From NCBI GenBank assembly GCA_013239625.1, contig MU053334.1, positions 186,001 through 248,000 on the forward strand: 62,000 nt of DNA. Reading direction: 5' to 3'. Of the stretch, positions 42,065-46,885 are shown piece after piece. Below the pieces are notes generated by a model. It saw only the letters and a list, made by a program, of their open reading frames with translations, was not told the origin of the DNA and did no database searches. The DNA is from Lama guanicoe. Its lineage: Eukaryota. Position 1 is the first letter of the stretch, and each line of letters begins with the position of its first letter. Position numbers and translations under genes: made by a program.

Positions 42065-45000
42065 CTAGGCCTGGGCAGGCTCTGGGGATTGCAACGCTGA
42101 AGGGCCAGGTGGACCAAGGTCCCCGGGGGCCAGGCTTGTGCGCTGGATGCCCTCCTGGTACTTGCGGCGGCCAAGCTCCAAAATGGCCTGCACCTCTTCT
42201 GCAACGTCCTGCCGGTCACTCTGCTCCAGGGCCTGCACTAGGAGCCCCACAGCTCCTGGCCGCCCAGCCTGGCGCTCAGCCCAGGAGAAGAGCATATGGC
42301 GGATCTGTCCATCCAGGTCGTCCCTGGGGGGATGGATGATGGGGGTATGGTGAGAGACAGGAGAGAGGGGAGAGAGGGGAGGGAAGGGCCTGGCCTAGCC
42401 CAGCCCAGCCCAGGACCACCCACCACACCCAGGGTGGTGCTCACCCTCCCCTGATGGGTGCCTCAATCCCTAGGCTAAGGGTGGGCAGACCCTCCCTTCC
42501 CTGCCCATTTGCCCTGGCTCCACCTCCTGTGGACGGAACTTCAGCCAGCCTCAAGCAGGGCCCTCCGGGCAGCCAGGCCTAGGCCTGAGGCTTGCCTGAG
42601 ATCAGTGGCAGGAGGCTGAAAGGAATTCACCTGAATTCATGCCTGATGCGCTGCAGCTCACGGTAGGGCATGCCCAAGTGCAGGGCCACGGCTGGCCAGT
42701 CGGGGCCCAGGCGCCCAGCCACAGTCAGCAGGTTGCTCTGGGTCAGGAAGCCAGTCTCAGCGTCGCCCAGGTTCAGAGGTGCCAGGGAGAGGCTAGCCCC
42801 CTGCCCTGGCCCCTCCGACCCCCGCAGTCTCTGTGGGGAGGACGCAGTGGCAGTGAGCCCTGGCTCCTGCCCCCAGGTTCCACCCCTGTACCCCTGGCGA
42901 CCCCCTGCCCCTTCACACACTGCCCCCCACCAGGCCACACCGGCAGCTTGATAGGCAGAGTGGCCATCCACAGGGTATCCATGCCCTTCTTCTGCCGGGC
43001 AGCCTCCGCCTCCTCGGGCACCTCCTCTGGCACCTCTCCCCGGTAGAAGGACACCTGGGTGGGGGGATGAGGTGGGGTTCAGTGCTCCTGCCTCTGCCCA
43101 GGTGGCCCGGGGGGCCCTACCCCATTGGCTCACCTGGCCCCTCACAGCCTGAGCCTTCCGGTCCAGGGCGGTGGTCACGTACACCTCCTTCACGTTCCTC
43201 AGGTGCGAATAGAAGACAAAGCGCAGCCTGCCCTCCACGCAGTCCGGACGGCCTGGGGGCAGGGGTGGGCTCAGCAGGGACCCGGGGCGGGGGCCGAACA
43301 CAGGGGCCATTCTCCAGGGGCAGGGGGCGTACCGGCATCCACGTCGATGCCTCCCTCAAAGGCAGCGAAGAATTTCTCGCCCTCAAACATCTCCACAGTG
43401 TCTGAGGGCTCGGGGCCGCGGTACCGCTCCAGTAGCCGCCGCAGGGTGGCATCCACCTGGGGGGTACCCACTGGCTGGGAGCCCAATGCCCTGCGCCCCC
43501 ACCTGGCCCCTGGACCCCACTTGGCTGGCTTCCTAACAGGCCCTCCGCGACCTCCGGCCCCCACCCCACACCTTGTTCCGGGGCAGGCACTGCAGCAGGA
43601 CCTGCTCAGGGTCCCGGCGTCTCTGCAGCGCGATCAGGTTCACGCGGTGGAGCCGCAGCCGCTCCCAGGCCTTCCGGGCCAGGCCCCCCACGCAGGTCGC
43701 AGTGGTGTACCAGAGCCAGTACCTGGGAAGCTGGGGAGTGAGGTAGGCAGTGCAGACAGGCGGGTGGGGAGGGACTGAGGAAGCCAGAGGGAGAACTGAC
43801 CAGGAAAAGCGTGTGACCTGGAAGCGGGCGTACAGGTGGGTGAGCTCTAGCGCCACCTGAGCCGTGATGTCATCCCAGGCAGCTGCGGGAGGGGCCCTGT
43901 ACAGCAGGTGCAGGCGGGAGCGGTCCAGACTCAGGCCTGGGGTGAGAGTGGCCGAAGGCTGAGGCCACCCTGGCAGGGCTCCCTTCTGAGCATCGCTGCC
44001 CGCCCCGGGGCCACAAGTCCAGGGATACAAGCCGCCGCCTCTCACCTGTGACGCCGGGGGGCAGAGGCAGCTGCACAGTGACCGGCTGGAGGAAGCTTGG
44101 GGGACCACTCTGGGTGAGGCACAGCAAGGGGCTCGCGGCTGCCTCAGGCTCCTCCAGCAGGGCTGGCCGTCCTCTGCTGCCCACGTGCACCACCTGGAGC
44201 AAGCAGGCCACCCGAACACTCAGCTCGGTGCTGAGGCACGCCCACCACCCTTGGCAGCTGCCCAGCCCGTACCTGCATGTGGACATGCCGGGGCTCCTCA
44301 GTGGCCCCAGGGGGGAATGTGACCTTGACCCCAGGATGTCCCGAGGAACACAGCAATGTCCCCTCTGGTGGCACCAGACAGGTGTTGGACACGGGGCGCG
44401 AAACCACAAGGAACCACGAAAAGTGGGGTACCTGGCAGCGGGCCCAGAGCCGCTGGGCGTCGGAGGCAGGGTTAGAGGGAACAGGGTCAGGGCTAGGGTA
44501 GAGCTGCTCCCCCTCCCGGACAGGCCTGGACAGCCCTCACCTTGGGTGCCTCTTCCTCCAGGTGGGTCTCCAGGTCACTCCAGCTGTTGTCACTCAGGGT
44601 CCTGACCACCACCTCCCGGCAACGCCGGGCCCGTGGTGGCACAAACAGCAGCCACAGGCCCACCTCCTGCCAGGCAAGGGCAGCATGAGCGCTGGGGCCA
44701 GACCCGTGCCTTCCTCACCCACCCCCCGAGCCGCCCTGGCTGTGCCTGCAGGAAGGCCACCCCGTGGGGCTGCAGCTCCAGGACACCACTGAGCAGAGAG
44801 TCATGAGGACCCAAGGGGACGAGGCGGGGCTCCGGCAGCCACAGTCGGTAGCGGATGGTAACAGGGGTGGCAGTGGCCCCAGCAGGGAACTGCAGGCGGA
44901 CGCCACAGGCCAGGGTCACAGAGCAGCCTTGAGGGGTCACGGGGAAGCTGAGAGGGGACAGAGTGGGTATCAGGTCAGACAAAGGCGAGTTTGAGAAGGG

Positions 45001-46885
45001 AGACCCCCGAGGCGTGGACAGGTGCTTCTCCAGCCCCTCCTCTCCCCCACACCATACCTGTCCACATCTGAGGTCAACAAGAGTCTGGGCATTTCTGGGA
45101 CCACGGGTGTCCCTGTGGAAAGACAGGCAAGTTGTTAGGGTGGTGAGGACAGCTGCGTCCTGACTGTGGTCTGCCCCTGCATGCCAACAAGCCTACCTGG
45201 GGGGCTGTGGGGGTCCGGGGGGGCCCTGCCCAGGGGGTTTCCTTGCAGGCGCACAAAGGGGGCGTCCAATAGCTCGGGGGGCACGTCCCGGAGCTGGTTG
45301 TCCCTCAGGTCCAGCCGGGTGAGCAGTGGGAGGCGGGCCAGGCTGGCGGGCACCGAGGCCAGAAGGTTGCTGTGCAGAACAAGGAGCCGCAGGGACCGGA
45401 GCCCCGCTGCGGGCAGGCACTGGCTTAGGGCCAGCAGAGGACTGCTCGGTGCCATCCCTGGCCTGGAGCACCAGGGCAGGCTGCTCCCACTAGGGCCTCC
45501 CAGAGAAGCCCTTTCAGTCTCTGCCCTGTGGCTGGACTAGAGAGCTCAGGCAGGCCTGTGCAGGGAGCCTCGAAGGCCAGGGAAGTTGGGGGCTGCCAAG
45601 GGGAAAAAGGCTCAAAAGTGGGCAAGCCTGTGTGTGCAGGGCCCCGCAGAGGAGATAGGGGCCACGGCAGAGTGCAGGCCGGGCAGTGGCCGACAGGCGC
45701 TCCCCACCAGGCCCAGTGAGCCAAGGCTGCGACTCACCAAGGGAGGTGGGGAGGCTCTGCAGCCGGTTGGAGGCCAGATTGAGCTCAGCAAGACTGCTCA
45801 GGCCTCCGATCTCAGGGGGCAGAGTGTCCAGAAGGTTCTCAGAGAGATCAAGGCGCTGCAGGGTGGACAGGGACCCCAGTGCTGTGGGCAGTGTTTCCAG
45901 GCGGTTGTGGGTGATGGCAAGGAAGGTGAGGGCAGGGAGCGCCCCCAGGGCCTCGGGCAGCTCTGAGAGGCAGTTATGAGAGAGCAAGAGGGCGCTCAAG
46001 CCACACATCTGTGGGACACAGGCTGGCAACGTCTCCAGGCTGTTGAAGCTCAGATCCAGGTGGGCCAAGTGGGTGAGGCCACTCAGGCTGGCAGGCAGCG
46101 TGGTCAGGGAGCCCTGGAGGCAGGCACCCAGAGCATTCCGGCGTTGCCCACCTGGGATGGGGGAAAGGCAGACATGACCCTCAGAGCCAGAGTCCCAGGT
46201 CCCAGCTCAGCCCTGCTAGCCATGGAAATAGGTGCATGGAAACAGAGACCTCCACCCCAACCCCACCAGACAAGGATCGACAGAGATACTGGAGAGACAG
46301 CAGCAGGTAGAGGAGGCAGGGACAGACAACGCAGGATCATCTCAGCAGATAGCCCCCATCCAGGAAAAATACCCACGCAGGGGTCTTCTGGGGACCCCAC
46401 TGGGCAGCTGCAGGGCCCAGGAGTGGGGCTCAGCCAGCTCCCTCTTGGGGGAAAATGGGATGGGTAGAGCTGTGCAGAGAATAGTGGAGGGGCTGGGATC
46501 GGGTTTGCCCGTGAGGACCAAGAGGCAGAGGCAGGAGTTAGAGATGGGGTTGGGACAGGGCTGGGAGGAGGTAGGGCTCACCTTTGAGGACCAGGGAGCG
46601 GAGGCGTGGCAGGCTCCAGGGCAGCCGGGCCAGGGTGGCCTCCAGCAGCCGAGGGTCCTCGTGGCTGCTCAGCTGCAGGAACTCCACCTCCAGCAGCTGA
46701 GGGACCTGCTGGGCACACAGGTGCAGCAGCCGGTGGCAGCCCCTGGGGTACAGGTCCAGGCTCAGCCGGTTCCCAGCCAGGAGAGGAGGCACCCCGGGCC
46801 CTGCATCCACAGCATCTGCAGCATCTCTTGCAGCATCTTCTGCAGCAGCTGACTCGGTCTCCAGCCCCTCCGCCACTGCAGCCAT
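42065..46885 (-). CDS. PIDD1: p53-induced death domain protein 1 (LRR-ZU5-ZU5-UPA-DD), 913 aa, 15 coding exons
   Basis: Exons 46582-46885, 45738-46151, 45197-45406, 45058-45112, 44746-44947 (GC donor), 44541-44666, 44273-44452, 44046-44193, 43801-43936, 43572-43722, 43333-43456, 43134-43252, 42941-43054, 42631-42830, 42065-42323 total 2742 nt. LRRs (LDLSFNSLETLP), VPHFSW and the death domain (DWPAVALHLG...MLFSWAERQ) are present. Confidence 0.97.

Follow-up and report, generated by a model that had tools for sequence, protein, structure and literature searches.

PIDD1 is a protein whose self-cleavage decides which signalling complex it builds. Human PIDD1 cleaves itself at S446 and S588 within HFSW motifs (PMC7883297; bioRxiv 10.1101/2025.06.23.660994). 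It has been described that caspase-2 activation is supported by the PIDD-CC fragment only, that the second cut is required for the activation of caspase-2 by extra centrosomes and that the exchange S588A blocks this response of the PIDDosome (PMC7883297). Here, we analysed a stretch of 62,000 nucleotides from Lama guanicoe (GenBank assembly GCA_013239625.1, contig MU053334.1, positions 186,001 to 248,000; in the following, the window), which carries a PIDD1 gene on its minus strand. The second motif of this gene encodes R-F-S instead of H-F-S, that is, an arginine at position -2 relative to the cut, which raises the questions of whether the codon is genuine, when the exchange arose and whether such a site can still be cut. 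The finding is an ancient natural H-to-R variant of a known self-cleavage motif, which is common to the main livestock species and most whales, and not a new kind of system.

Read on the minus strand, coding exon 9 ends with ...CAG GTC ACA CGC TTT TCC TG followed by gtcagt and thus encodes V-T-R-F-S-W; the exon end lies at 43801 and the GT donor at 43800-43799. The complete translation of this exon is LSLDRSRLHLLYRAPPAAAWDDITAQVALELTHLYARFQVTRFS. The nucleophilic Ser at +1 and the Phe at -1 are both present at the second site, whereas the His at -2 is replaced by Arg589. The CGC codon of Arg589 contains a CpG, and a single transition would convert it to CAC (His) or TGC (Cys). The first site retains H-F-S where the first ZU5 domain ends. 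A first-pass annotation, made from the letters of the window alone, had already read the exon end as VTRFSW, with the Arg codon at 43809-43811, and an intact VPHFSW at about 44414-44431, and both readings are confirmed here; its exon 10 corresponds to our coding exon 9 if one 5' non-coding exon is counted. Its account of two HFS sites (S446 and S588) and of a caspase-2 PIDDosome that needs PIDD-CC likewise agrees with the literature cited above. The features around the two motifs are as follows:

44414..44431, minus strand: first autoprocessing motif VPHFSW, GTA CCC CAC TTT TCG TGG, with H447-F448-S449 at 44425-44417, intact
43801..43936, minus strand: coding exon 9, with the last part of the second ZU5 domain; closes R589-F590-S591-W(592, split codon)
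43809..43811, minus strand: CGC codon of Arg589, position -2 of the second autoprocessing motif, where the human protein has His586
43803..43808, minus strand: Phe590 (TTT, 43808-43806) and Ser591 (TCC, 43805-43803), between which the scissile bond is expected; Ser591 is the equivalent of the human nucleophile S588
43723..43800, minus strand: intron after the second motif, 78 nt, GT-AG, in frame and without a stop codon; an open reading frame (ORF) at 43533..44219 reads through it
43572..43722, minus strand: coding exon 10, preceded by AG; completes TGG (Trp), continues with YWLWYTT and starts the PIDD-CC part, YWLWYTTATCVGGLARKAWERLRL...

A single codon offers no chance test; its recurrence across species is the test. 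A protein search with the exon, which covered 5.8 billion proteins, gave 199 matches with E <= 0.001 among 210 candidates, of which the best 120 were examined. The exon 9 translation is 100% identical, arginine included, in PIDD1 of Camelus ferus, C. dromedarius and Vicugna pacos, which stem from different assemblies and scaffolds, and C. bactrianus PIDD1, found among the cluster members, is likewise identical and carries the arginine. The first-pass annotation had proposed an alignment across camelids and artiodactyls, and such a comparison gives Arg in all four camelids examined. It had also considered a single-base assembly error or a polymorphism private to the sequenced animal, an explanation which has nothing in its favour beyond its prior possibility. 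Against it stand the four camelid and 22 other cetartiodactyl species that carry Arg in independent assemblies, and the k-mer content of the sequencing runs: each of the 14 DNA-type runs noted contains all 122 sampled 31-mers of window positions 43400-44600. These runs, from five studies and with four organism codes, include 11 that are flagged as possible sources of the window DNA and three that are not. Five RNA runs contain a fraction of 0.21-0.42 of the 31-mers sampled from the same interval, as expected if the exons are transcribed. Because Arg recurs across species and assemblies, error and private polymorphism are ruled out, with a residual probability that is negligible, and the Arg589 codon is genuine and fixed.

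The identity of the gene, which the first-pass annotation had named as PIDD1, is borne out by the comparison with annotated proteins and by the domain architecture. The spliced model of 913 amino acids matches alpaca PIDD1 isoform X2 (P0184) at 912 of 913 positions, the sole mismatch being E733 in place of K, and each of three Camelus proteins at 903 of 913 (10 differences); the window therefore holds a camelid PIDD1, to which alpaca is closest among the proteins compared. Pfam detects LRR_8/LRR_4 repeats, two ZU5 domains, Peptidase_S68 at 424-456 and a Death domain at 802-875 in the alpaca protein, and the Peptidase_S68 match spans the first autoprocessing site. No separate Pfam match to UPA was obtained in P0184, and this region aligns to the ZU5-ZU5-UPA part of ankyrin. 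The leucine-rich repeats, the two ZU5 domains, the C-terminal death domain, the near-identity to annotated PIDD1 and the expected neighbour gene together mark the gene as a PIDD1 orthologue.

Distribution and history of the -2 residue

Among the best 120 of the 199 exon matches, position -2 of the second site is His in 93, Arg in 26 and Gln in one; the search ranked matches by their likeness to an Arg-bearing query, so that the proportions in this list favour Arg, and the presence of a residue in a given species is unaffected. The species counts that follow pool exon matches, cluster members, representatives at 50% identity and a second search seeded with a shrew protein. The representatives came from a search with full-length camel PIDD1, which was dominated by LRR proteins; among the 32 of 150 listed entries that were examined, about 12 resembled PIDD1. 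In cetartiodactyls, 26 of 34 species carry Arg, seven carry His and one carries Gln. The Arg-bearing species comprise the four camelids, Sus and Phacochoerus, the ruminants Bos mutus, Bos indicus, Ovis, Oryx, Moschus, Dama, Cervus canadensis and Odocoileus, Hippopotamus, and among the whales Physeter, Kogia, Mesoplodon, two Balaenoptera species, Megaptera, Eubalaena, Eschrichtius, Delphinapterus, Monodon and Phocoena. His is found in six delphinids (Tursiops, Globicephala, Delphinus, Orcinus, Pseudorca and Lagenorhynchus albirostris) and in Muntiacus reevesi, and Gln in Sagmatias obliquidens (P0127, P0141, P0142); a further cluster, P0029, also reads QFS. Toothed whales thus display three states, Gln in Sagmatias, His in six other delphinids and Arg in porpoise, beluga and narwhal. 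Outside the cetartiodactyls, His is present in 74 of 76 mammalian species, including bats, horses, a rhinoceros, a pangolin, 10 carnivores, primates, rodents, lagomorphs, afrotheres, xenarthrans and the mole relative Galemys; the exceptions are the shrews Sorex araneus and S. fumeus, both with Arg.

A maximum-likelihood tree was built from one canonical isoform of each of 63 mammalian species over 913 columns, with the trait column kept in. Cetartiodactyla form one clade in this PIDD1 tree (support of 99 in the Shimodaira-Hasegawa-like approximate likelihood-ratio test), which comprises 23 species with Arg, seven with His and one with Gln. The distribution of the -2 residue requires at least five changes on the tree, and none of 200 label shuffles needed as few. 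With the root placed at afrotheres and xenarthrans, the simplest history starts with a change from His to Arg on the cetartiodactyl stem and a return from Arg to His at the base of the Delphinidae (support 96); the remaining steps are a change to Gln in Sagmatias, a change from Arg to His in Muntiacus and a change from His to Arg in Sorex. As reconstructed from these sequences, the exchange arose once on the cetartiodactyl stem, not in camelids, and has persisted in camelids, pigs, ruminants, the hippopotamus and most whales. Going by divergence dates, the exchange on the stem goes back more than 50 million years. The first-pass annotation had assigned the exchange to the lineage of the sequenced animal, which has to be corrected to the cetartiodactyl stem, with a recurrence in Sorex. 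An adaptation specific to camelids is ruled out by the distribution of Arg among species.

Constraint at the two motifs and the second cut

The two sites differ in what has been free to change. On the 63-species tree, the His of site 1 did not change at all. Position 589 changed five times, where the 913 columns have a mean of 3.0 changes and a median of 1, and the directly following positions 590-598 (FSWYWLWYT) did not change. Phe590 and Ser591 are unchanged in 63 of 63 mammals, in all 20 sequences of a vertebrate alignment, to which lamprey, hagfish, gar, tarpon, arowana, a frog and a lizard were added, and in 120 of 120 clusters of ray-finned fish PIDD1. In the jawless vertebrates, site 2 reads EFS (then L) in Lampetra fluviatilis (P0190) and SFS in Myxine glutinosa (P0192); the hagfish motif is of the NLRP1/CARD8 type. 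The 120 ray-finned fish clusters (P0193, P0195, P0396-P0513) retain Phe-Ser at both sites, and the residue before it at site 1 is Gln in 84, His in 30, Glu in two, Ser in two, Asn in one and a gap in one; a parallel Gln variant therefore exists at the first site of most ray-finned fishes. With site 1 varied and site 2 constant, the fish pattern is the mirror image of that in cetartiodactyls. Because Phe-Ser is invariant and the -2 residue varies, Phe-Ser represents the universal core of the motif and the -2 residue is a position that has been exchanged in whole clades, at either the first or the second site. Such switching also occurs at position 442 (alpaca numbering), five residues ahead of the first cut, with His in 34 and Arg in 28 of the 63 mammals and seven changes on the tree, so that exchanges between His and Arg are common in the vicinity of the motifs as well.

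By sequence, the closest relative with a solved structure is the ZU5-ZU5-UPA part of ankyrin (E 5e-14 for the ZU5-2/UPA part against the PDB); no PIDD1 ZU5-UPA structure was present in the PDB copy searched. Ankyrin, which is not known to cleave itself, has N-V-S-A where the window protein has R-F-S-W, so that the fold does not simply dictate Phe and Trp.

Mutational studies of related proteins bear on the role of the -2 residue. Autocleavage of Nup98 was reported to be "only slightly affected" by the exchanges H862Q and H862A (PMC3210808, citing Hodel 2002). CARD8 and NLRP1 are cleaved with Ser at position -2, and the CARD8 exchanges S295A and S295Q had little or no effect (PMC3210808). The exchange of Phe to His is reported to abolish cleavage of PIDD and CARD8 (PMC3210808, D'Osualdo et al.), and another His and a Glu within the ZU5-like domain have been found to matter (PMC3210808). 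PIDD1 has further been described as very well conserved among mammals around both cut sites, and trace amounts of PIDD1-CC as sufficient for caspase-2 activation (bioRxiv 10.1101/2025.06.23.660994).

We consider it rather probable that the arginine is a tolerated or rate-tuning substitution and that PIDD-CC is still made. Autoprocessing of this kind proceeds by an N-to-O acyl shift, in which the hydroxyl group of Ser attacks the strained peptide bond between Phe and Ser to give an ester that is then hydrolysed. In the window protein, Phe590 would anchor the strained turn with which the second ZU5 domain ends, Ser591 would attack the Phe-Ser bond and, after hydrolysis of the ester, the cut would free the UPA-death domain fragment, which would assemble with RAIDD and caspase-2. 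The -2 residue would tune the rate only, with the Phe anchor and the Ser nucleophile as the indispensable parts, both of which are intact; the RFS site would then still be cut, perhaps more slowly, and yield PIDD-CC for the RAIDD/caspase-2 PIDDosome. Such a cut would have to rely on strain and on a different proton acceptor or on water, as is necessarily the case at the SF/S sites of NLRP1 and CARD8. Retained cleavage is suggested because Phe-Ser-Trp has long been frozen across the clade and the -2 residue has been replaced at other sites of the family, and because the effects of mutations in relatives are reported to be small and the need for PIDD-CC to be very low.

Several points weigh against a cut that tolerates arginine. 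Arginine is protonated at physiological pH and hence unable to deprotonate Ser as a general base, and none of the cited natural or engineered substitutes at position -2 is Arg. The fish clusters read HFS at site 2 in 120 of 120 cases, and their Gln variation sits at site 1, not at site 2; as judged from these sequences and from the 74 of 76 non-cetartiodactyl mammals with His, the histidine of site 2 is under constraint. Packing, and not cleavage, could account for the invariance of Phe-Ser-Trp, as the whole block 576-598 is nearly frozen. The His of Muntiacus and the Gln of Sagmatias each come from one named assembly. No report was found on an RFS PIDD1, on a human H586 mutant or on the processing of artiodactyl PIDD, which is weak evidence given the thin coverage of subscription journals. 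A review describes the His at -2 as essential in both PIDD1 and NUP98 and as harmlessly replaced by Ser in NLRP1 and CARD8 (PMC9162469), and a preprint on bacterial GAIN-like (GAIN/MAIN) domains describes a His that deprotonates the Ser/Thr nucleophile. Whether the -2 His defines the motif is thus disputed between secondary sources (PMC3210808 versus PMC9162469).

On the same grounds, arginine might substantially slow or abolish the second cut, which we hold to be possible and rather unlikely. Cetartiodactyla and Sorex would then make little PIDD-CC, the balance would move towards PIDD-C functions or a weaker caspase-2 ploidy and centrosome checkpoint, and the His regained in delphinids and muntjac would restore efficient cutting. 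The essential role that the review (PMC9162469) ascribes to the histidine and the use of His as a base in related domains argue for such an effect. Established chemistry, by which Arg cannot deprotonate Ser, the otherwise strong conservation of the site-2 His in fishes and mammals and the lack of Arg among the cited substitutes point in the same direction. This explanation does not sit well with Phe-Ser-Trp and the downstream strand being invariant in all 31 cetartiodactyls of the tree, nor with the fixation of non-His residues in large clades at other PIDD1 sites. The small effects reported for Nup98 H862A/Q and CARD8 S295A/Q (PMC3210808) and the sufficiency of trace PIDD1-CC (bioRxiv 10.1101/2025.06.23.660994) also speak against it. 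Signs of decay are also absent from the rest of the gene, with an intact ORF, 99.9% identity to alpaca and only nine columns in the whole protein that set cetartiodactyls apart from other mammals. The first-pass annotation had suggested that loss of the His could lower PIDD-CC; on our analysis, this is weakened by the natural non-His residues at other vertebrate PIDD1 sites and by the Nup98 and CARD8 mutants, and is kept alive by the review and by the inability of Arg to act as a general base.

That arginine was itself selected appears improbable. In this case, its charge might act by stabilising the tetrahedral intermediate or by setting a regulated rate, or the residue might serve as a site of binding or modification. 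Selection would explain the persistence of a hypermutable CpG codon, and Arg was kept in 26 of 34 species over all major cetartiodactyl branches, with a second origin in Sorex. The at least three departures from Arg within the clade, however, fit neutrality between Arg and His equally well, and the codon CGC is known from the window only, the other species having been compared as proteins. A compensating substitution, for example a new His or another partner of position 589, was sought among the nine cetartiodactyl-diagnostic columns, and no co-varying substitution stood out there.

The gene model around the motif

PIDD1 occupies 42065..46885 on the minus strand and comprises 15 coding exons in a spliced model built against alpaca PIDD1 and supported by tblastn:

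46885-46582, 46151-45738, 45406-45197, 45112-45058 and 44947-44746, minus strand: coding exons 1-5
44666-44541, 44452-44273, 44193-44046, 43936-43801 and 43722-43572, minus strand: coding exons 6-10
43456-43333, 43252-43134, 43054-42941, 42830-42631 and 42323-42065, minus strand: coding exons 11-15
42065..42830, minus strand: coding exons 14 and 15 with the death domain (Pfam Death, residues 802-875 of P0184), which is needed by both PIDD-C and PIDD-CC

The introns are of the GT-AG type apart from one GC donor, which the best spliced model places at 44744-44745 on the minus strand, after coding exon 5 (exon end 44746). The region around the motif is GC-rich, with a G+C content of about 0.66. 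Judged by eye only, ARFQVTR|FS contains no dibasic motif by which the arginine would create a new protease site.

Database isoform models (P0005-P0009 and others) retain the 78-nt intron and thereby insert 26 residues, SVLPLA... or similar, directly after FSW. These "isoform X1" models occur in camelids, whales, pig, hippopotamus, elephant, a bat and some primates, and the insertion lies where the strand that follows the cut should be; it may represent real alternative splicing or an annotation artefact. Downstream of PIDD1 on the same strand, at about 39379-35029, lie exons of the mitochondrial glutamate carrier 1 gene SLC25A22, which were located by tblastn via the fused model P0010. Such PIDD1-SLC25A22 fusions in the database (P0010, P0152) put glutamate-carrier proteins into the 90% cluster of sheep PIDD1. 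PIDD1 isoform X2 of the gar Lepisosteus oculatus (P0196) carries a very long N-terminal tandem repeat with units like EESREGLEEQRGERRHT, which is absent in the other sequences and may be either a genuine expansion or a product of the annotation.

Implications and relation to known systems

Arginine at site 2 in the clade of the main livestock is modestly surprising in view of texts that state the conservation of the motif and an essential His. Either PIDD1 can do without the His, with consequences for the catalytic mechanism of ZU5-type autoprocessing, or the output of the PIDDosome differs systematically between clades, with consequences for pig, sheep and cattle as models of liver and heart ploidy. 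If the arginine is silent, it is an ordinary neutral substitution. In a more far-reaching interpretation, which we regard as doubtful, Cetartiodactyla and, independently, Sorex would carry a naturally slowed second site, would make less PIDD-CC and would have a loosened or re-timed PIDDosome polyploidy checkpoint after failure of cytokinesis, with delphinids and muntjac having reverted to the fast His form via a CpG transition. If this was true, the variants H, R and Q would form a natural allelic series in a motif that reviews treat as fixed, and it might connect to species differences in the ploidy and multinucleation of hepatocytes and cardiomyocytes. Pig cardiomyocytes are markedly multinucleate. 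The shift towards NF-kB signalling or an altered polyploidy checkpoint, which the first-pass annotation had raised, is speculation. Work on PIDD and caspase-2 in renal cells was reportedly done in pig LLC-PK1 cells. PIDD-dependent activation of caspase-2 in renal cells is cited in a review on cisplatin.

The closest known system is the second site of human and mouse PIDD1 (H586-F587-S588 in human, S593 in mouse; unit 2 of the MEROPS-type "PIDD auto-processing"), which belongs to the orthologous gene with the same LRR-ZU5-ZU5-UPA-death domain order as in the window. The flanks ARFQVT and FSWYWLWYTT are identical, as are the Phe, the Ser nucleophile and the position at the ZU5/UPA junction. The human and mouse proteins have His at position -2 and their cleavage has been demonstrated; the window protein has Arg, and the literature searched yielded no cleavage data on any PIDD1 with this residue. 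Site 1 of ray-finned fish PIDD1, mostly QFS, provides a case within the same family in which a large clade has a non-His residue beside an invariant Phe-Ser; it differs from the window in the site concerned, in having Gln rather than Arg, and in that cleavage there is putative. The autoproteolytic domain of Nup98 (H862-F863-S864) shares the tripeptide logic and the N-O acyl-shift mechanism with PIDD1; however, its domain family and context are unlike those of PIDD1, and no Arg substitution is among the Nup98 mutants reported in the sources consulted. Helper residues equivalent to the His and Glu of NLRP1/CARD8 were not identified in PIDD1 here. The FIIND (ZU5-UPA) domains of NLRP1 and CARD8, with their SF/S motif, are like PIDD1 cut at the ZU5-UPA junction between Phe and Ser, and they are cut without a His at position -2; they are paralogous domains in other proteins, in which the natural -2 residue is a small Ser, in contrast to the large cationic Arg found in PIDD1.

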